From a virus (lineage: Duplodnaviria > Caudoviricetes), in IMG/VR virus record IMGVR_UViG_2595698524_000001, positions 64,001 through 128,000 of that record: DNA of 64,000 nt; one strand, written 5' to 3'. The notes beneath the pieces are model-generated. The model had not been told where the DNA came from. It ran no database searches and saw nothing but the letters and a program-made list of their open reading frames with translations. Both the position numbers and the translations under genes were made by a program. Below are positions 643-41,714 of this stretch, piece by piece (position 1 is the first letter of the stretch; each line of letters begins with the position of its first letter).

Positions 643-1230
643 ATGACGTTTGAAATGGGCACCGACACTAAAATCCCTGTTCTCAATGCAAAAGGCGTAG
701 CGGCACATCCATACGCCCCGCTTGAAGTGGGTATGCTGGTAAACCAGCGTAACCGTAACGGAATGGCACAACCTGACCATGTCCGTAAATCAGCGTTTGT
801 CTTTAACTGGTTCCGTGAATTCCACTTCATTGAATTGGAAGACGATATGATTGACTGGGTCGATGATTCCCCGTGGTTGCAGAAACCGATTTTCATGTTC
901 CACATGGACCTGCCGGATTACGGTGAACCGCTGTTACGTAATGCCATCAAAGACGTTCCTATTCAGCACGCGCTGCGCCGTTGTGATGGCTACAAGGGTA
1001 TGATTTACACCATCGAAGACTTCGGTGACATTCACGGGAACTTCAAAGAAAGCGTCACGACCAGCCGTGCGAACTTCCTGAACAAAGTTAAGGAGAACAT
1101 CCCAGACTTCCAGTTCCCGACCAGTAACTACATTAGCCCAACCGTCTGGCGTGAGGTATCTCACCTCATCGTTAACGAATACGGTAATCTGGTAGAAACC
1201 GTTGTTCGCGAGCCGGTTGAACGGACATAA
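643..1230 (+). CDS. hypothetical protein
   Basis: 195-aa ORF with GAGGAG SD. Confidence 0.8.
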   Translation: MTFEMGTDTKIPVLNAKGVAAHPYAPLEVGMLVNQRNRNGMAQPDHVRKSAFVFNWFREFHFIELEDDMIDWVDDSPWLQKPIFMFHMDLPDYGEPLLRNAIKDVPIQHALRRCDGYKGMIYTIEDFGDIHGNFKESVTTSRANFLNKVKENIPDFQFPTSNYISPTVWREVSHLIVNEYGNLVETVVREPVERT

Positions 1231-1235
1231 AGCCC

Positions 1236-1290
1236 ACCCCCGTACCCACAAGGGTACGGGGGTCATAAACCTCTTCGGTTTATTTTTTTT
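1236..1290. terminator. terminator between convergent genes
   Basis: 12-bp stem ACCCCCGTACCC-ACAA-GGGTACGGGGGT, a second small hairpin and a T-tract. Confidence 0.8.
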
Positions 1291-1292
1291 GC

Positions 1293-2834
1293 TTAGAACA
1301 AATCTCCGGACATGCCGCCGGTGAACTTATTGATAGAGTTGGCAGTTACTTCAACTTCCTTATCCACATCCCAAGGCAGGATGCAATGGTCTTCAAACGG
1401 TATTACAGTGTAGTGATGTTTTTCAGGCGTGTCGATAATGGTACGATGTTTACCACGCTGCACTTCTAAATAACTACGTCCTTCAATTACACGCTTGTTG
1501 AAGAACATCTCACCGTCGGCTTCGTTATCCAGAGAGGAACAGGTATCGTACAGACCGCGACCCGGTAACGACTTAACGAATGCAGATTCATCAATCGCTT
1601 TCAGTCGTTTACCTTCCGGGCTAATCTGGTGTGGGCCTAAGATGAACCCACGGTTACGTACCACCTGAATGTTACGGGCGATACGATAAATCTCTTTAAT
1701 GTCGGAACCTGCAATACCGTTTCCGTGACCTGCTTTGTTGATGGTACCAAAGTAGTCTGCACGAATCCCAACAACATGATAACCACGACGCTTCGCATCG
1801 CTGATAAGGTCATTGAGGTAGTGCACTTTGAAATCGGAGTTGGTATGTTTCTGGAACTCATAGTTCCATCCGTTCCGGTTCAGTTTCGAACAGACGTAAT
1901 CTGCCATCGCAGTGACGTCCTGATTCACCATGTCCGCTTTCACGCCTTCGAAGTGACCATACAGCATCTGATAAGCAGTTGCGATATTGATATCGAGTTC
2001 GTTCTCAAGCGACAGGTCAAGAATCATTGGCTGCAAATCACCCTTGACATCTTTCATCACGTATTCCGGTGTGTTGAATACCGGAACCGAGATTGCCATG
2101 CAAAGACTAAACAGAGACTTACAGTTAAACGGCAGAGCGGGCATCAGCCACATCTCTTCGGTAATCCCGCCATTACAACCCATCATACGGTTTATGGATT
2201 GCCAGCCCGTACGTAAGCCGTGACCCGCTGCTTTATCTTTGATGGAGCTAAACACTTTCGCAAACGGTGCAGCGTTCGCTGTGTTCAGTGTGTTCACCAA
2301 AGATGGAATCTTATTATGACTACGTTCAGTGAACGTGGAGATGGAGTCACGAAGATTACCTAAAGCGGTGCTGAGGTCAATACGGGTCTCGGTACCGTTC
2401 AATGCACCAAATGCTTGACCCAGAGTTTTACGCAAAGTAATCGCGTTTAATGACTGGCGCAATTGGAAGTAATGACGCGATACCATCTTATTGAGGTAAG
2501 CAACACGCTCCTCGGGTTTTGTGTCGTCCGGTATATCGTCGCCCGCGATAAATTCTACTACGGTATCGTATAGGGGACGATTCTGCGTTGTTGCCAGTTT
2601 TAACTGGCGCATGACGGCATCGTGATCGTATGTAACCTGTCCGTCAATGATGGGTTCGATAATCGCTTTGATTTCGGTGAGTGCGAGACGTTCGTCGTCC
2701 TCATCGACATAATCCGGAAGACGAGATTCCGCCAATACCTTTCTTATGACCTCATGATCAGTTTGAGGTTCGGTTAAAAGGCTTTCCGCGTGCAAAGTGG
2801 CTAATGCGGTAATCAACATCGTCTTAATATTCAT
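1293..2834 (-). CDS. DnaB-like replicative helicase (phiKZ-type)
   Basis: TGWQSINRMMG, variant Walker A ALPFNCKS, LSLENE, ADY, HQIS and RGKHR motifs; lies just upstream of the capsid gene as in phiKZ-like phages. Confidence 0.85.
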   Translation of the reverse strand: MNIKTMLITALATLHAESLLTEPQTDHEVIRKVLAESRLPDYVDEDDERLALTEIKAIIEPIIDGQVTYDHDAVMRQLKLATTQNRPLYDTVVEFIAGDDIPDDTKPEERVAYLNKMVSRHYFQLRQSLNAITLRKTLGQAFGALNGTETRIDLSTALGNLRDSISTFTERSHNKIPSLVNTLNTANAAPFAKVFSSIKDKAAGHGLRTGWQSINRMMGCNGGITEEMWLMPALPFNCKSLFSLCMAISVPVFNTPEYVMKDVKGDLQPMILDLSLENELDINIATAYQMLYGHFEGVKADMVNQDVTAMADYVCSKLNRNGWNYEFQKHTNSDFKVHYLNDLISDAKRRGYHVVGIRADYFGTINKAGHGNGIAGSDIKEIYRIARNIQVVRNRGFILGPHQISPEGKRLKAIDESAFVKSLPGRGLYDTCSSLDNEADGEMFFNKRVIEGRSYLEVQRGKHRTIIDTPEKHHYTVIPFEDHCILPWDVDKEVEVTANSINKFTGGMSGDLF

Positions 2835-34894: not shown

Positions 34895-35908
34895 ATGAAA
34901 CAGTATCAAGATTTAATGGCTGAAGTCTTTGCGAAAGGTACGCCGAAGAAAGACCGTACCGGTACAGGCACGCTTTCTATCTTCGGCCACCAGATGCGTT
35001 TCAACTTGCAAGAAGGTTTCCCGCTGGTAACGACCAAGCGTTGCCACCTGCGCTCTATTATCCATGAACTGCTGTGGTTCCTGAAAGGCGACACCAATAT
35101 CCAGTACCTGAAAGATAATGGTGTAACCATTTGGGACGAATGGGCGGACAAAAATGGCGACCTCGGTCCGGTATACGGTAAGCAGTGGCGGGCATGGACT
35201 GCGCATGATGAGGTCCATACTGGCAATAAGAAAATTATTGCTGAGATGGAAGAAGATGGGTGGGAAGAAGCGGGTTATCGCGAAGCTTCGATGCTGCTGA
35301 CTAAAGATATCGACCAGATTGCCAAAGTCATGGGCCAGTTGAAAAACGACCCGGATAATCGGCGTATCATCGTTAGTGCATGGAACGTAGCTGACCTTGA
35401 CGATATGGCCTTAGCTCCTTGCCACGCCTTCTTCCAGTTTTATACTCGTGAAATGTCCTTGGATGAGCGTGTACAGTGGGCGGAAGAAAACGACAACGAG
35501 CTGTGGTCTGATTACATCCACGCCACGTTTGTGGATGAAAACACCCGTCTCGGGTGGCTGGATAAAGCCGGGGTTCCTACGCGTAAGTTGTCTTGTCAGC
35601 TCTATCAGCGTAGTGCCGACGTGTTCTTGGGTGTGCCGTTTAACATCGCGTCGTATGCTCTACTGATTCACATGTTTGCACAGCAGGCGAATATGGCGGT
35701 GGGCGATTTCGTCTGGACCGGCGGTGATGTGCATCTGTATTCTAACCATCTGGAACAGGCACGTACTCAGTTAGGTCGTACTCCGCGTGCGTTGCCTAAG
35801 CTGATTATCAAACGTAAGCCGGACTCTATCTTCGACTATAAGTTCGAAGATTTTGATATCGAAGGCTACGACCCACACCCGGCTATTAAAGCACCGGTGG
35901 CGATATGA
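34895..35908 (+). CDS. thyA: thymidylate synthase with two insertions
   Basis: [24 protein letters not shown] and KAPVAI; near-colinear with E. coli ThyA. Confidence 0.97.
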
Positions 35909-36171: not shown

Positions 36172-36353
36172 TTATGGCCAGTGATAGACCGGCGCAGGAA
36201 ATCGTAAGCGATATTCTTGCCGACTATAATGAGCGCGGATTACAGCAAATCACTTTACACAGCACGGGCGAGTTTATTCACGTCTCTGCTGTGGATGTGA
36301 AACGTAAACGCGTAGTTAATACTTACGCCCGTACGGAGCCTAAACGCCGATGA
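36168..36353 (+). CDS. hypothetical protein
   Basis: Short ORF coupled on both sides. Confidence 0.55.
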   Translation: MIMASDRPAQEIVSDILADYNERGLQQITLHSTGEFIHVSAVDVKRKRVVNTYARTEPKRR

Positions 36354-37081
36354 GCAGAATCCCGCAGTATGACGATAAGAACCGACTTTATTACCCAATC
36401 ACTCTTATCGACACAGAAGGCCGTTTTACGATTAACGGTATTAGTTATGCGGTGGACGTAGACAACATTGAAAACTTCAGTGTGTTTAAACGTCCCAATG
36501 TTTATGTTGAGTTAGAACATCCGGCGCGTTTACCGACGATGTCTGACGAAGACTATCGTCGTCGAAATGCCAGCATCGAAACTCAAAACGTGGTGGGCAC
36601 GGTCGACGTAACTATCCTGCGTCCGAGTCGCAGTCGTGTTGTTGTAACAGGTAACTTCTACCCGGGCAACCTCAAACCTGAAATCCGCGAAGCCTTTGAA
36701 CGCGGGGACCTTTCGTTAGGTGTTCGTGCCCGTGTCACGACAGACCGGTTGGTGGACATCATCACGTGGGATTTGGTGTTCCTGCCTGAACGTGAACTGC
36801 GCCATGTGGAATGCGAGCGACCGCCGTTAAATACGACGCTGTTCGTTTCTTCCAATCGGGGCTATACGTGGTTCCCGGCAATGTTTCTCTGGATAGGCGA
36901 GAAAACGTTTGTCTGGCGCAACATGGTAGGTGGTGCGCAGGCTGATAACGAAATCACCAACAACAACCGCTTCACGTACTTCATGTGGTCACCTGTACCT
37001 GAGGGTGTTGAATTAAAAACGTATAGCGGCAATGATGTGCCCGATTTCCTACGCAAAAGGAGTGATGCGAATGCTAATTAA
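36350..37081 (+). CDS. prohead-protease-like paralog, probably inactive, with an extra C-terminal domain
   Basis: VELEHP..P.M...Y..R..I...NV, LGVRA and IITWDLV resemble T4 gp21/phiKZ gp175 motifs. Confidence 0.55.
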   Translation: MSRIPQYDDKNRLYYPITLIDTEGRFTINGISYAVDVDNIENFSVFKRPNVYVELEHPARLPTMSDEDYRRRNASIETQNVVGTVDVTILRPSRSRVVVTGNFYPGNLKPEIREAFERGDLSLGVRARVTTDRLVDIITWDLVFLPERELRHVECERPPLNTTLFVSSNRGYTWFPAMFLWIGEKTFVWRNMVGGAQADNEITNNNRFTYFMWSPVPEGVELKTYSGNDVPDFLRKRSDANAN

Positions 37082-37559
37082 AGAATTGGATGACCGCATT
37101 AACTTTATCGATAAGAACGATAACTTTGTGGGCATCGAGCATGCTAAGCAGCATCACGGCCTGTGCGCGTTTGATTGGTGGATTACTGACGATGAACGTG
37201 AAATCGGTACGTTGAAGCCACGTCAAGACCGCTTCATGCTTCGCGACGGTAGCATGGTAGATGTGAATGAACTGGTGTTTGATACTCGCTCAGACATCTT
37301 TCAAGGTAAACTGGTGTTGAAAGGCGTCAGTAATAAGCACCCAATGATGGGTGACCGTGAAGAGCTTGAAACTAAGCACTATATCGTCGCCGTCAAAGTT
37401 CGTGACCAGTACGATATTGAGCATTGGCTGGTTATGACCAATAACCATAACGGCTGGTACAGCCTAGGCTGGAAATCAAATCTGATTCCCGGCGAGGTTG
37501 ATATTAACGACAGCAACTTCTATCAGGAAGATTGCGACGGTAATACTCTGGGGATTTAA
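37071..37559 (+). CDS. hypothetical protein
   Basis: AGGAG SD; NNHNGWYS motif. Confidence 0.7.
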   Translation: MLIKELDDRINFIDKNDNFVGIEHAKQHHGLCAFDWWITDDEREIGTLKPRQDRFMLRDGSMVDVNELVFDTRSDIFQGKLVLKGVSNKHPMMGDREELETKHYIVAVKVRDQYDIEHWLVMTNNHNGWYSLGWKSNLIPGEVDINDSNFYQEDCDGNTLGI

Positions 37560-38090
37560 ATGTCAGATAAAATCGTACCCTTCACACCGCGCCCGTCTAA
37601 CGGACCTTCACTGGATGTGAACCCAGTTGATGTGTCCGAGGTTGCTCAGTTCAGAGATTATGACACTGGCCGTATTGAAGTACCGCAGGCTGATGGCTCA
37701 ACCCGTTCGGTTATCTTCAACATGGATTTAGTTGACTGGTGGCTGGCATTGTCTGAGCGGTTTGTTAAAACGATGCCAGAAGGTCCGTATGGCCGCGCTT
37801 TCATCGGACTGAACAAACTCGAACACGCGGTTACGGATGTTTTCACGAACCGCAAGCGTCATCTTGAAATGGAGATTACGCGCCAGCAGTTCGAACAGTT
37901 TGTTCAGGCGGTTCCATGTCAACTGATGGAGACCACCCATCGTACCTGTCAGTTGAGCGTAGCGGAGTTCGTTATTGAACACGTTGAAGATAACATCTTC
38001 GCTAAGCAAATTCCGGCTGACCTTGAGTCAGCTATTTTCCTCTATCAAGTGGACGGCGAACGCTTCCGTCTCCACTACGTCGAACAGTAA
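37560..38090 (+). CDS. hypothetical protein
   Basis: 176-aa ORF abutting the previous stop codon. Confidence 0.75.
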   Translation: MSDKIVPFTPRPSNGPSLDVNPVDVSEVAQFRDYDTGRIEVPQADGSTRSVIFNMDLVDWWLALSERFVKTMPEGPYGRAFIGLNKLEHAVTDVFTNRKRHLEMEITRQQFEQFVQAVPCQLMETTHRTCQLSVAEFVIEHVEDNIFAKQIPADLESAIFLYQVDGERFRLHYVEQ

Positions 38091-38099
38091 GGGTAAGTA

Positions 38100-38336
38100 A
38101 TGAAAGAACGTAACGGTGTTGTAGATAACTCGCACATCTCCCTCGGTCGCGCTACCTCTTTAACAGGTGACCCGGTCGATGTCGCTCGCGGTCAGACCAC
38201 ACAGTTCCAGCATGCGGATGACTCGGCCTTCGATTTGGACGCTATCCCCGGCCTGGACCCTGAGGCAGGCGTCGAGGGCGGTGTCGACCCGTCCAAGGAA
38301 GACGATAACTGTACGGGAGGCGCATGCAAGATTTAA
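38100..38336 (+). CDS. small acidic protein ending in an NrdA-like redox tail (EDDNCTGGACKI)
   Basis: 78 aa; fills the gap in the operon; C-terminal CxxxxCKI. Confidence 0.75.
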   Translation: MKERNGVVDNSHISLGRATSLTGDPVDVARGQTTQFQHADDSAFDLDAIPGLDPEAGVEGGVDPSKEDDNCTGGACKI

Positions 38337-38809
38337 AGCCCGACAACACGGTCGCGCAACAAACCGCCGAGTTAATGGAAGAACACGCCCGAATTAACGA
38401 ACGTTACTCTCCTGACGACGGGGTGAGTTGGTTCGGAACACGTCGCCAGTTGGTAACCAAATACTACGCGGAATCGTTGCCATCGATTTGCTGGCAAGAA
38501 GTCAGTGAAAAGATTCGTACCCAGCGCGTGATTGTTTGCGCTGCGCTCCGTTACCCGGATTTGGATTTGGTGATTCCGGGTGCCCGTCACTATAGCCCAG
38601 ACATTGGTCGTTTACTCGACCGTCTGGAGAAGTTCGGTGTAATGCCCAAAAAGAAACAGCAAGTCGTTGGCGACAACCAAGGCTTCATTGACAACTTCGG
38701 TAATTACTGGACGCGTGAAGAAGCCCTGATAATTGCTAAAGCCGCCAGTCAGGTTAACCCTGATAAGTGCGGGCGTGAAAACGAGCTGTATTCTGAAGAC
38801 CTGTATTAA
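38324..38809 (+). CDS. conserved phage protein of unknown function
   Basis: IVCAA..GARH..QGFID..G...TREEA..LYSEDLY pattern; GGAGG SD. Confidence 0.8.
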   Translation: MQDLKPDNTVAQQTAELMEEHARINERYSPDDGVSWFGTRRQLVTKYYAESLPSICWQEVSEKIRTQRVIVCAALRYPDLDLVIPGARHYSPDIGRLLDRLEKFGVMPKKKQQVVGDNQGFIDNFGNYWTREEALIIAKAASQVNPDKCGRENELYSEDLY

Positions 38810-38858
38810 TCCCCGAGCCCTAGCATCTCGTTAGGGCTACTCAAAAGAGAAAACTAAT

Positions 38859-39314
38859 ATGTCTACGACTCCAGATTTTGATTTGGTAGTGCAAGAGCTT
38901 AGTAAGAACATGTATCCCCTTGACGGTGTCGTTGCTAAAGCAACGCCGTTTCCGCGCGATTATCTACTCTCGGAGTTTAGAACCATTAAACTAGGGGCGG
39001 GGCGTGAGCAGGGTATTGGGGCATGGGCGGTTAAGAAGTTTATTGACCATCCGGGTAAAACTTTAATGTTGTGCGCTAATCAGGGTGTTTCTACCGACTT
39101 CATCGAAGAAATAAAATTCGCTGATGGCGAAGACGCCCTTAAACGTGGGATGGTATTACACAACGATTACCCCGACCATGTGCGATTCCACAAATTCGAT
39201 CAAGTTATCATTATCTCTGCCGGTTATTATTTTAATCGCTATAAGCACAGCAAAATCTATAAACTTCTTGCTGAATGCGTAACCGATGATGTAATTATTT
39301 ACCACCTTAATTAA
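38859..39314 (+). CDS. hypothetical protein, possibly a degenerate P-loop fold
   Basis: GAGREQG, TLMLCAN and FDQVIII. Confidence 0.65.
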   Translation: MSTTPDFDLVVQELSKNMYPLDGVVAKATPFPRDYLLSEFRTIKLGAGREQGIGAWAVKKFIDHPGKTLMLCANQGVSTDFIEEIKFADGEDALKRGMVLHNDYPDHVRFHKFDQVIIISAGYYFNRYKHSKIYKLLAECVTDDVIIYHLN

Positions 39315-39327
39315 TGGAAATAACGAA

Positions 39328-40209
39328 ATGACCCGTCAAACTTTTCAAGTACCTGTAGCGTATACCATCATCAAACCGACTGATGGTGTGTTGGGTGACC
39401 TTATCCCCTCCATCAACAAATGGTCTGCGCAACAGGCTGCGCATCTTTCCGGCCCGGGCGTTAAGCTGGAAGCCCTGAAAGAGATCGCCATCAACAACGA
39501 AACCAAGCAGTGGCGTATCTCCGGCCGCGAAGCCATTAATGGCGACGTGTGGTTCTGGATGACTCCAACTGCACTGGTGTTTGAACATGAAGTGGTCGGT
39601 AAGACTACTTACCCGCGCGATGTTCCGCTGTTCAGCGTCGCTGAGTGTGTGGAAAATGTTGTAGGTTGGTCTACCGCTCGCGGTATTCTGGAAAACGGTC
39701 GTTGGGCTACGCAGGTCACTAAGTTCTACGAAGAAGACGGCGAAGCGGCAACGGGTATCAGCAAAACCCAACGTCAGGCTATCATGGACGGTTTAGGCGA
39801 TGCGCTGGTTGTACTGGTTAACATTACAGCGCTCATTGACTGGACGCCGAAGGTTATCGCAGTTATGCTGGATCGTGCCCGCGACCGTATTGAAAACAAT
39901 GTGCCTTTCGGTGACTCTCACCGCCTGTTCCACAAAATGCGTTTGAACTTCACGTTGATGAATGACGTTATCTATAACGCGTGCGATATGTATCCACTGA
40001 AAGATAACGGCAGACCTTTACTCGGTAACGATGAAGGTATCGAATTCGAAGAACTGATGTTGAAATCTCTCTGGTACATGGAAGCATTGGCCCGTGCGTA
40101 TGAAGTGACGCTGGAACAATGTTTCTCGCTGGCGTGGGACGAAATCAAAGACCGTAAAGGTTATTTGAACGCAGACGGTATCTTCATCAAAGAAGCTGAC
40201 GCGAAATAA
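39328..40209 (+). CDS. MazG-like nucleotide pyrophosphohydrolase with N-terminal extension
   Basis: W...RGI, KFYEEDGEA, DGLGDALVVL and AWDEIKDRKG..GIFIKE. Confidence 0.8.
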   Translation: MTRQTFQVPVAYTIIKPTDGVLGDLIPSINKWSAQQAAHLSGPGVKLEALKEIAINNETKQWRISGREAINGDVWFWMTPTALVFEHEVVGKTTYPRDVPLFSVAECVENVVGWSTARGILENGRWATQVTKFYEEDGEAATGISKTQRQAIMDGLGDALVVLVNITALIDWTPKVIAVMLDRARDRIENNVPFGDSHRLFHKMRLNFTLMNDVIYNACDMYPLKDNGRPLLGNDEGIEFEELMLKSLWYMEALARAYEVTLEQCFSLAWDEIKDRKGYLNADGIFIKEADAK

Positions 40210-40268
40210 CAAAAACAACTGGGTGATGCTTTATGCGTCACCCCTTTTATTTTTTTGAGGATTCAACG

Positions 40269-41714
40269 ATGAATATCATCATGGAGTGGTATAACCTCCT
40301 GACCGATTCTCTGAAAGCTTACCCTTCCCTACAGGCAGCGTTCTTAACAGTCATGTCAGGCGGCGTAATGGCTGCAGTAGGTTTCGCTTTAGTGCGATTA
40401 CCTCGCAGTGTCGCCACGTTCTTTCGCAATCAGTGCCTCACATCTCTCGTTTTCAATACAGCATCGTCCGGCTGGTCTGAATACAACCAGATGCAGTACG
40501 TCGCTTTTATTAAGTGGTTCTCAAAGAATCGCTGGTTCGGTTGGTCGCGCACTATCACTTTCGACTCAGACGGGCGAAAGGATGGTGACGGCGTAGGCCC
40601 CGGCTTAGGTCGCCATTTCTTTTTTCATAACTGGCGATTGTTTATCTTCTCCATCAGTGAGATGGACTCGCAAGGCACCAGCAGCCAAAAATATAAAGTC
40701 AGCCTGTCTTGTGTAGGTCGTTCAAAGAAACCGATTTATGCGGTGATGGAAGAGTTCATGGTTAAGCCTGACCGTGAGAATCGCATCGGGGTTTATCGTA
40801 ACGGCACCGACGGTTGGAACTGGGTCACCTATGCGAACAAACGCTCTTTACGTTCGGTGATTATGTCGCCCGAGCTCGAAGAAGAACTGGTAGGCTCAAT
40901 GACAAACTTCGTGAATAACGAAGCGTGGTATCGTGAGCGGGGTCTGAACTATAAGCTGACCTACCTACTCTACGGACCTCCGGGTACGGGTAAGAGCTCG
41001 CTGGGGCGTGCGTTAGCATCACACTTTAACCGTGACCTTTATATCCTGAGTCTGTCGGAGTCTTCAGACCTACTGACCCTATTGCAAAACGCAAAAGGCG
41101 GCATGGTTCTCATTGAAGATATCGACGGGTTCAGCGCAGCACGCAAACGTACCGGTAAGAAGAACCAAATCGAATCGCCGAAGTCGGGTAAGAAAACCGT
41201 TGAACAGATTCACTTCGACGGTAATGGCGAACAGATTGCGCCGGCTAACCCGAGCAAGAACCTCGAAGACATTATGGCAGAATGGGGCGGGATGAATACC
41301 TCAGCACTGCTCAATGCTTTAGATGGGGTTGTTGGGCTGGACGATGTCATTATTCTGCTGTCCACGAACCATCCGGAGAAACTCGACCCGGCGCTGATTC
41401 GTGATGGGCGTGTGGATATCCGTGTAGAGGTCGGTCTGCTGCGTTCTGCCGAAATCCACCGCTACATTAATCTGTTCTTCCCGGACTTTGTTGTGCCGGA
41501 AGAGATGGTGTTCGCAGACATGCCGGGTTGTACCGTGCAGCGTCACTTCATGGAAAACAAAAACAACCCTGAAGGGTTTGTGCAGGCGTTATTGGATGCC
41601 TCAGACGGCGGTAACTTTACCACCAGTCCGATTCGTCCAGAGCTTGCTTTCAGTGAAGCGAACAACCGTTATTTGGTTGACCCGGATGCGCCTAAGGAGG
41701 TTGTCAATGCTTAA
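40269..41714 (+). CDS. Bcs1-like membrane-anchored AAA+ ATPase
   Basis: N-terminal TM; WYRERG..Y...YLLYGPPGTGKSS; IEDID; LLNALDG; TNHPEKLDPALIR.GRVD. Confidence 0.85.
   Translation: MNIIMEWYNLLTDSLKAYPSLQAAFLTVMSGGVMAAVGFALVRLPRSVATFFRNQCLTSLVFNTASSGWSEYNQMQYVAFIKWFSKNRWFGWSRTITFDSDGRKDGDGVGPGLGRHFFFHNWRLFIFSISEMDSQGTSSQKYKVSLSCVGRSKKPIYAVMEEFMVKPDRENRIGVYRNGTDGWNWVTYANKRSLRSVIMSPELEEELVGSMTNFVNNEAWYRERGLNYKLTYLLYGPPGTGKSSLGRALASHFNRDLYILSLSESSDLLTLLQNAKGGMVLIEDIDGFSAARKRTGKKNQIESPKSGKKTVEQIHFDGNGEQIAPANPSKNLEDIMAEWGGMNTSALLNALDGVVGLDDVIILLSTNHPEKLDPALIRDGRVDIRVEVGLLRSAEIHRYINLFFPDFVVPEEMVFADMPGCTVQRHFMENKNNPEGFVQALLDASDGGNFTTSPIRPELAFSEANNRYLVDPDAPKEVVNA

Follow-up and report, generated by a model that had tools for sequence, protein, structure and literature searches.

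A 64,000-nucleotide stretch of viral DNA (the window; bases 64001-128000 of the 223,989-bp virus record IMGVR_UViG_2595698524_000001, which is estimated to be 99% complete) carries a conserved gene for a 78-amino-acid peptide that ends like NrdA, the large (alpha) subunit of class Ia ribonucleotide reductase (RNR). In class I RNR the C-terminal cysteine pair of the alpha subunit re-reduces the disulfide of the active site and is itself reduced by thioredoxins or glutaredoxins, as stated in passages of two reports (PMC11903788; PMC4078304). We consider it possible, with a probability of roughly 45%, that the phage peptide is a portable redox tail that would be recharged by thioredoxin (Trx) or glutaredoxin (Grx) of the host and would support the turnover of the host class Ia RNR. 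The evidence for such a shuttle is comparative and consists of the identity of the tail, its mutual exclusion with phage RNR, the occurrence of a lone small subunit NrdB in some carriers and the biosynthetic genes in its neighbourhood.

Likeness of the peptide to the NrdA redox tail

The peptide, whose gene and sequence elements are compiled in Table 1, ends in EDDNCTGGACKI (also given as ...SKEDDNCTGGACKI) and contains only two cysteines. It is acidic (15 aspartates plus glutamates, 6 lysines plus arginines, pI 4.23), and its AlphaFold2 model based on a 16-sequence alignment shows a mean pLDDT of 56.5 and neither helices nor strands, which is consistent with a disordered protein. An earlier reading of the DNA from its letters alone (the sequence-only reading) had described an open reading frame (ORF) with this ending, acidic and probably disordered, and this description holds. 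Over its whole length (residues 1-78 on profile positions 1-80 of 80) the peptide matches phrog_24014 with an E-value of 1.2e-42, and it also matches phrog_38753 (E 1.1e-18) and phrog_14561 (E 1.1e-17), all three being annotated as ‘unknown function’. The Pfam scan of the 78 residues returned no family, the catalytic barrel PF02867 (Ribonuc_red_lgC) included. The thioredoxin-fold redoxins PF00085 and PF00462 gave no match in the peptide either, its cysteine spacing being CX4C and its model disordered.

Using a profile of 16 homologues as query, the best matches in the PDB were 1qfn_B and residues 746-761 of E. coli R1, aligned end-to-end at the C-terminus. 1qfn_B is the 25-residue C-terminal peptide of E. 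coli R1 whose structure has been solved bound to glutaredoxin-1 (1QFN). Both cysteines of the phage peptide align with cysteines of E. coli NrdA (Table 1), of which we take Cys754 to have a redox role, and the end of E. coli NrdA as taken from the search output (...PSIQDDGCESGACKI) resembles that of the peptide. For a wider comparison we used Enterobacterales genomes fetched with an E. coli-type NrdA. All 80 NrdA ends from named species follow the pattern ...[PA]S[IAV]QDD[GD]CESGACKI, and 10 of the last 15 residues of the peptide (PSKEDDNCTGGACKI) are identical to all 80 tails. At the nucleotide level only 31-33 of 48 positions match, so that the likeness lies in the protein and does not reflect a recent DNA transfer. 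Among the 3958 stop-to-stop frames of at least 30 amino acids in the whole 224-kb genome this peptide is the only one with a C-x4-C-x-x ending, and the ending is not due to chance. Judged from these alignments, the tail is that of a class Ia NrdA, and the profile match, the identity in 10 of 15 residues and the Pfam scan bear out the earlier proposal of a free-standing NrdA-type redox tail without a catalytic barrel.

A tblastn search found the peptide in 88 phage records, mainly from Salmonella SPN3US-type and Erwinia jumbo phages, and a collection of 5.8 billion proteins contained 15 homologues. In the 16 aligned sequences both cysteines and about 30 C-terminal residues are kept and the N-terminal half is variable or missing. 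P50, G51, D53, P54, G61, V62, D63, C71, G74, A75, C76 and K77 are invariant, D41 and L52 nearly so. For the last 30 codons of the family with the IPGLD motif we obtained a pN/pS of 0.27 at a pS of 0.70, meaning that synonymous sites are near saturation and the protein is conserved. Only this figure was used; the value of 0.075 for the last eight codons was set aside as biased because the search pattern had fixed those residues. The tail codons also differ synonymously over the 60 tail-bearing records described below. We conclude that the ORF is a real gene, that it is conserved and that purifying selection acts on it. Relatives do possess the ORF with both cysteines and the gene is no remnant of an nrdA, two findings that would have spoken against the sequence-only reading had they come out otherwise.

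A second conserved element lies upstream of the tail and consists of an acidic-aromatic motif followed by IPGLDP. In nearly all free peptides an acidic-aromatic stretch is found about 25-35 residues ahead of the cysteines, and the pattern [DE][DE]x?[FWY][DE] occurs in 17 of 45 peptide bodies compared to 4.3 ± 1.9 in shuffles, numbers that are descriptive only as the sequences are related. The sequence-only reading had likened the middle segment RGQTTQFQHADDSAF to the Walker-B region of the T4 terminase and had regarded the peptide as a possible mosaic of fragments. This idea is not supported: the segment is kept only in the closest relatives and is absent or different elsewhere in the family, its RGQTTQFQH part being conserved only among the nearest relatives, so the Walker-B-like segment is not a conserved feature. 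From the family alignment, the middle segment belongs instead to the recurrent acidic-aromatic motif followed by IPGLDP.

Free tails and RNR genes in viral contigs

For a census of free tails IMG/VR was scanned with the back-translated pattern C-x-G-G-A-C-K-I-stop and two versions of C-x-S-G-A-C-K-I-stop, which gave 88 + 10 + 27 = 125 matches. From the frame read upstream of the pattern, 62 of the 125 are free-standing ORFs of 36-130 amino acids and 4 are fusions to non-RNR domains, 56 are true NrdA C-termini, whole or split (L028, L053 and L035 were assigned to NrdA by hand from their C-terminal sequence), and 3 are tiny or truncated. Hence 122 of the 125 CxxGACKI-stop matches are NrdA ends or free peptides and fusions. 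In all 60 tail-bearing records the back-translated pattern was found once per record, and a reversed control pattern was found in none. Free tails are widespread in phages; nearly all of them have a net charge of -8 to -15, and a Stenotrophomonas jumbo phage has a version of 46 amino acids. For two uncultured tail-bearing families the phage collection contained no useful cultured relatives. Separately from the free tails, the census revealed split nrdA genes in many viral contigs, with C-terminal pieces as ORFs of 166-467 amino acids (L028, L053, L047, L032, L034, L042, L062 and L063), some of which start with a sequence ending in ...HNC and resemble intein or homing-endonuclease junctions.

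The residues in front of A-C-K-I differ between the groups. A G-G loop is present in 52 of the 62 free tails and S-G in the remaining 10; viral NrdA ends show 30 G-G and 26 S-G, and the NrdAs of Enterobacterales hosts are S-G throughout (80/80). This may mean that the free tails come from nrdA genes of phages and not of hosts, or that function favours the G-G loop. After removal of the last 10 residues, 54 distinct free peptides fell into six BLAST clusters with 47 in a single one, to which low-complexity acidic matches may contribute. Since 47 of 54 share a cluster, most of the acidic peptides may be one family; the idea of many independent peptide families was rejected, and we claim independence only for the differing N-terminal domains and the diverse phage types.

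These N-terminal contexts are a zinc-ribbon-like domain in gp68 of Vibrio phage ICP2 (two CxxC pairs; weak E-values of 0.003-0.05, below the cut-offs), a Phage_gp49_66 domain, a 123-amino-acid protein, the end of phrog_10453 proteins (P0016 and P0017) and two further domains of 263 and 296 amino acids. As most phrog_10453 homologues lack the tail, it is an add-on to this protein, and fused forms as well as other free tails reach phrog_14561 through the tail. The AlphaFold2 model of the phrog_10453 fusion is good for residues 1-261 (mean pLDDT 78.8), with the tail flexible or disordered. Foldseek against the PDB gave no match for the phrog_10453 domain at E ≤ 0.001, a wide VIA-align search reached a best Z of 5.3 for the helical part 178-264 only, and the ESM Atlas gave nothing usable. 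BLAST revealed no relation of the fused N-terminal domains to each other or to ORFs of the window.

Co-occurrence with RNR was analysed in 60 tail-bearing records, namely the genome of the window, 47 and 10 further records from IMG/VR, ICP2 and BUCTxx100 (L091 was outside the search); of the virus records, 41 reach a completeness of 90% or more. The RNR large subunit (PF02867) was found in none of the 60 and in all five NrdA-bearing positive controls, and in the three IMG/VR scans no contig held both an NrdA end and a free tail. According to a passage of PMC3653736, RNR is encoded in 128 of 685 double-stranded DNA phage genomes. Thioredoxin and glutaredoxin are likewise absent from the 60 records (0/60 each), and one NrdAB-bearing control does encode a thioredoxin. 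The 224-kb genome of the window has no match to PF02867, PF00268 (small subunit), PF13597 (NrdD), PF00085 (thioredoxin) or PF00462 (glutaredoxin); each of these searches had positive controls in reference genomes, and the PF02867 control was found in 12 of 14. Any RNR or redoxin partner of the peptide must thus come from the host.

Two kinds of partial RNR genes do occur among the carriers. Class III NrdD is present in 2 of 60 records (ICP2 and an ICP2-like contig), and a lone class Ia NrdB without NrdA in 6 of 60, all from one phage family of about 60 kb (G002, G011, G016, G028, G035 and G039). The lone NrdB is 62-64% identical to E. coli-type NrdB with one surface loop deleted, and its alignment retains the iron ligands, the radical tyrosine, the pathway tryptophan and tyrosine, whose roles we assume from the E. 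coli literature, and an acidic-hydrophobic C-terminus of the alpha-binding type. By its sequence this implies that the phage beta subunit would work with the host alpha subunit. As a lone NrdB is useful only together with an active host alpha, a tail peptide that poisons alpha is unlikely in these phages.

Gene neighbourhoods and expression signals

In the window the peptide gene has thyA upstream and a gene for a MazG-like nucleotide pyrophosphohydrolase downstream, and the matches to PF00303 and phrog_7855 confirm the nucleotide genes that the sequence-only reading had named. The same order is found in SPN3US (peptide gp234) and Caitlin (peptide gp246). The phage itself is a jumbo phage, and its nearest cultured relatives are the Erwinia jumbo phages pEa_SNUABM_38, EarlPhillipIV and Derbicus, with about 81-86% nucleotide identity over parts. 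Working out the distances from coordinates, we found the tail gene within 5.1 kb of thyA in 37 of 41 thyA-bearing records and within 9 kb in 38, the others being at 48, 66 and 71 kb. The thyA-linked genomes have completeness-corrected sizes of about 190-320 kb, several of the records being incomplete contigs of 19-124 kb.

Other phages have other neighbours of a similar kind. ICP2-like Vibrio phages show the order tk, zinc-ribbon-plus-tail gene (gp68) and class III nrdD, and in the ICP2-like contig (L131 / G033:C1:19620-21621) the tail gene follows the thymidine kinase gene and nrdD begins 188 bp after the tail gene. In the roughly 60-kb family an ORF of 222 amino acids lies ahead of the tail ORF and is coupled to it in translation; the tail ORF is followed by P-loop kinase-like, ThyX-like and dUTPase-like ORFs, which were named by eye from their motifs, with NrdB 11 kb away. 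Next to the tail gene of small phages there are genes for a T7-type primase-helicase, DNA polymerase A, a 5'-3' exonuclease, dUTPase and a RecA-like protein. From these neighbours the tail gene belongs to a nucleotide-synthesis or replication module in several kinds of phages.

The peptide gene has its own ATG start, preceded by a putative Shine-Dalgarno-like site. The ATG of the downstream phrog_839 gene sits inside the A-C-K-I codons of the tail and creates an overlap of 13 nucleotides, which suggests translational coupling of the two genes; the phrog_839 neighbour is not kept beside the tail gene in SPN3US or Caitlin. The last 13 nucleotides of the peptide gene are dual-coding in this phage. 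The ORF upstream of the peptide gene matches HNHc_6 with an E-value of 0.016, below the cut-off, and was not counted as evidence for a homing endonuclease. Contigs from RNA-type libraries with 85-95% likeness span the ORF (X16 record 5 at 37087-38995; X18 record 21 at 38196-38406), and we did not count them as evidence for transcription because one RNA library contains a 224-kb contig and DNA carry-over is possible.

Table 1. Position of the peptide gene, its elements and related genes (window coordinates, except for the last line).
Feature	Location	Strand	Description and basis
Peptide gene	38100..38336	+	78 amino acids; coordinates include the stop codon; ATG start; phrog_24014 member; ORF list and sequence
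Acidic-aromatic motif followed by IPGLDP, residues 40-54, DDSAFDLDAIPGLDP	38217..38261	+	second conserved element
Redox-tail copy, residues 61-78, GVDPSKEDDNCTGGACKI	38280..38333	+	C-terminally anchored; family profile match and Enterobacterales comparison
Cys71 codon TGT	38310..38312	+	aligns with E. coli NrdA Cys754; invariant in homologues
Cys76 codon TGC	38325..38327	+	aligns with E. coli NrdA Cys759; invariant in homologues
Putative Shine-Dalgarno-like site AAGGGT	38089..38094	+	5 nucleotides before ATG; overlaps stop of upstream ORF 37560..38090; read from sequence
Downstream gene, 161 amino acids	38324..38809	+	phrog_839 (function unknown); context; ORF list and family match
Thymidylate synthase gene thyA	34895..35908	+	PF00303, E 1.1e-117; upstream companion of the peptide gene
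MazG-like nucleotide pyrophosphohydrolase gene	39328..40209	+	phrog_7855, E 1.1e-115; weak Pfam MazG match; downstream
Lone NrdB gene in L130 (G002:C1:38500-52500)	957..2069	-	class Ia NrdB

Some observations at these loci stand apart from the tail. In the nucleotide-metabolism region of the window, an ORF of 243 amino acids (36350..37081, plus strand) shows a marginal-to-weak likeness to families of phage head-maturation proteases (Peptidase_S80, E 1.6e-5, 24.7 bits at a Pfam cut-off of 23.4; phrog_7478, E 1e-9), its main family being phrog_22315 of unknown function. Directly after the MazG-like gene follows a BCS1-like AAA ATPase of 493 amino acids (40233..41714, plus strand; AAA E 1.3e-17, BCS1_N E 5e-10) that is conserved in the Erwinia phage relatives. 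In nine records (G007, G017, G023, G037, G044, G045, G046, G047 and G053) the match to thymidylate synthase is broken into two parts, one at profile positions of about 1-170 and one at about 150-266. The parts lie in a single longer frame of 359-464 amino acids in seven of the nine and in separate frames in G047 and G053, which points to split thyA genes or to insertions, such as an intein, an intron or a homing endonuclease. In ICP2 itself (L003, HQ641345.1 48007-48748) the NrdD match is limited to a frame of 111 amino acids that corresponds to the C-terminal end of the profile (positions 487-562 of 562) and lies about 0.9 kb away from where the linear record ends. In a 45-kb viral contig that is 59% complete (L031:1886-3744) a tail ORF of 42 amino acids lies between IscS-like and IscU-like genes (cysteine desulfurase Aminotran_5, E 1e-91; scaffold NifU_N, E 1e-55), and here the tail gene may have been inserted into an operon for Fe-S assembly, either carried by the phage or derived from the host. 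Finally, an uncultured phage, probably a jumbo phage, is represented by a 95-kb fragment that encodes a PhuZ/TubZ-like tubulin (L079:3390-4346, plus strand; Tubulin E 1e-10, TubZ_C_2 E 1.5e-10) 1.4 kb after the tail gene.

Shuttle, decoy or tag

If the peptide acts as an electron shuttle, Trx1 and Grx1 of the host would recognise it like NrdA's own tail and would reduce the pair Cys71/Cys76. The acidic-aromatic/IPGLDP motif would then steer the reduced peptide, which would hand over its electrons, in trans, to the active-site cysteines of the host NrdA in their oxidised form or to NrdA's own tail. The result would be a faster re-reduction half-cycle of RNR and more deoxynucleoside triphosphates (dNTP) for the 224-kb genome. 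That Trx or Grx reduces the peptide, that it touches NrdA and that it supports rather than inhibits the enzyme is what we infer from the comparative evidence. The sequence-only reading had put forward a shuttle or a decoy aimed at host RNR, Trx or Grx; the free tail, the RNR being that of the host only and the nucleotide-gene context speak for this part of it, and its mosaic part is not supported.

Several points weigh against a shuttle. The host NrdA already has a tethered tail and may gain little kinetically from a free one, and according to a passage of PMC5704485 the C-terminal domain of a class II enzyme expressed separately was poorly soluble and failed to restore the truncated enzyme. 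The E-values of the PDB matches obtained with the family profile are weak (0.1-0.3), and the search with the single sequence did not find NrdA in the PDB, its only hit being an unrelated designed protein with an E-value of 0.34. Between the cysteines the peptide has T-G where the NrdA of Enterobacterales has E-S, so the mimicry is inexact and the origin of the tail may be a phage nrdA and not the host gene. Because the 60 records are not independent, the absence of RNR does not amount to 60 separate events, and we grade the exclusion of tail and RNR between suggestive and strong. The upstream motif resembles by eye the C-termini of NrdB from NrdAB-bearing loci, and for a role as NrdB mimic docking on alpha the sequence comparison gave no support beyond composition: a hidden Markov model of 24 distinct NrdB C-termini gave a mean best score of 0.06 on the peptides compared to -0.99 ± 0.55 for 30 shuffles (top shuffle mean 0.17), only 3 of 53 peptides exceeded all of their own shuffles, and a strict NrdB-tail regular expression matched 2 of 45 peptides and 2.3 in shuffles. 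Last, the tail fusions to unrelated domains and the T7-like position in early replication modules fit a general tag or a takeover inhibitor equally well.

The strongest competitor, which we regard as unlikely, is a decoy or inhibitor, a pseudo-substrate that would soak up reduced host Trx or Grx or block the tail-docking site on NrdA and thereby throttle RNR or redirect reducing power, similar to the block of R1 regeneration by Sml1 of yeast. Many phage inhibitors of host proteins are small, acidic and disordered, and so is this peptide, which is small and very acidic. Its tail is a known recognition element of Trx and Grx, as seen with Grx1 in 1QFN, and in small phages the gene stands among the early genes of the replication module (DNA polymerase A, primase-helicase, exonuclease). 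Furthermore, yeast has small disordered RNR inhibitors, Sml1 (a passage of PMC6382339) and Hug1 (a passage of PMC4245953), and in the one class II test mentioned above (PMC5704485) the separate redox domain was inactive in trans. However, the tails occur only in phages without a class I or II RNR of their own (0/60), which are those that need the host RNR most, and an inhibitor would make more sense in phages equipped with an RNR of their own. In six carriers there is a lone intact NrdB, for which host NrdA is the only possible partner, and the linkage is to biosynthetic genes, namely thyA, ThyX-like, dUTPase, tk and nrdD. The genomic context, taken by itself, favours a booster over a decoy.

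We give even less credence to a portable tag or adaptor unrelated to RNR catalysis, which would recruit Trx or Grx and bring the redoxin as reductant, chaperone or cofactor to an N-terminal partner, the acidic-aromatic motif serving as second binding site in the free peptides. The same tail on phrog_10453, on the domains of 263 and 296 amino acids, on Phage_gp49_66, on the zinc-ribbon-like domain and on the 123-amino-acid protein would be well explained in this way, as would its absence from most phrog_10453 homologues, which marks it as an add-on, and the conservation of the second motif at a roughly constant distance upstream in free peptides. T7 DNA polymerase uses host thioredoxin, and in one family the tail gene follows DNA polymerase A. 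Yet a tag leaves unexplained why tails and RNR large subunits exclude each other completely and why the gene keeps so close to thyA, nrdD, tk and ThyX-like genes; no candidate partner emerged, and the phrog_10453 domain has no recognisable fold match. It is highly improbable that the gene is a chance ORF or what is left, without function, of an nrdA that the phage has lost: the tail probably did once derive from an nrdA 3' end, and split or truncated nrdA is common in viral contigs, but no free peptide has NrdA-like sequence ahead of the tail, where true NrdA ends carry ...K-T-L-Y-Y..., also not at the locus in the window, and the gene with its own start and Shine-Dalgarno-like site keeps both cysteines in the alignment (88 phage records by tblastn), is conserved as protein at nearly saturated synonymous sites and recurs as 62 free-standing copies in diverse phages, one per genome, with PF02867 in none of the 60 records.

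Taken as a type, the peptide belongs with known things, namely the redox tails of RNR, RNR domains that are encoded separately and host motifs imitated by viruses. With the tail of E. coli NrdA (1QFN) it shares the C-terminal acidic stretch followed by C-x-[GS]-G-A-C-K-I, in which both cysteines and G, A, K and I do not vary, and its flexible or disordered nature; it differs in lacking the barrel, in being encoded by a phage, in its own acidic-aromatic/IPGLDP motif and in the T-G instead of the E-S loop. That the redox domain of an RNR can be encoded apart has a precedent in the split class II RNR NrdJa+b of Pseudomonas aeruginosa, where, as a passage of PMC5704485 describes, the redox C-terminal part NrdJb is a polypeptide of its own. 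NrdJb is a folded zinc-binding domain encoded beside the catalytic subunit of the same organism, which lacks this domain, whereas the phage piece is a disordered peptide of 40-80 amino acids (with a zinc-ribbon-like part only in ICP2 gp68) and the catalytic subunit would be that of the host, which keeps its own tail. The yeast proteins Sml1, Hug1, Dif1 and Spd1 are also short and disordered and act on RNR subunits; according to passages of the respective reports, Sml1 competes at the site where R1 is regenerated (PMC6382339, with reference to Zhang et al. 2007) and Hug1 binds Rnr2 (PMC4245953). In contrast to the phage peptide they are cellular inhibitors of unrelated sequence without a CX4C tail, and the phage context points to support of dNTP synthesis. 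Phage NrdAB, the T4 thioredoxin NrdC, ThyA and MazG share the neighbourhood and presumably the goal of feeding phage DNA synthesis, yet these are complete enzymes or redoxins and the tail is only a substrate-like appendage, found where the phage has no class I or II NrdA, no Trx and no Grx, even if a few carriers have a lone NrdB or an NrdD. A description of free-standing NrdA tails in phages was not found in the full-text literature, with subscription journals mostly and supplements altogether outside this search.

RNR is the bottleneck of DNA precursor supply and has been studied for long, yet its re-reduction half-cycle is structurally still poorly understood. If the peptide is indeed a shuttle, it would represent a class of viral auxiliary factors not described before, which contribute no enzyme but only a catalytic appendage to one of the host, and it would be a natural trans-acting probe of the access of the tail to the active site and of recognition by Trx and Grx. 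It would also account for a set of small ‘hypothetical’ genes that are conserved in SPN3US-type, Erwinia and Vibrio ICP2-type phages and in many uncultured ones. Some phages would pair the tail with a lone NrdB and so upgrade the host alpha subunit from both sides. Should the peptide be an inhibitor or decoy instead, it would be the first counterpart of Sml1-type regulators in bacterial viruses and a starting point for peptides that inhibit the class Ia RNR of bacteria. With slightly less confidence we extend the shuttle to phages in general, namely that those without a class I or II RNR large subunit may repeatedly have evolved or exchanged a free disordered tail that is recharged by the host and plugs into host NrdA in trans. 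The free tails in such phages suggest that they tap the DNA-precursor supply of the host, and if this is true it would be a new way in which viruses reprogram host metabolism, by a donated disordered functional appendage.

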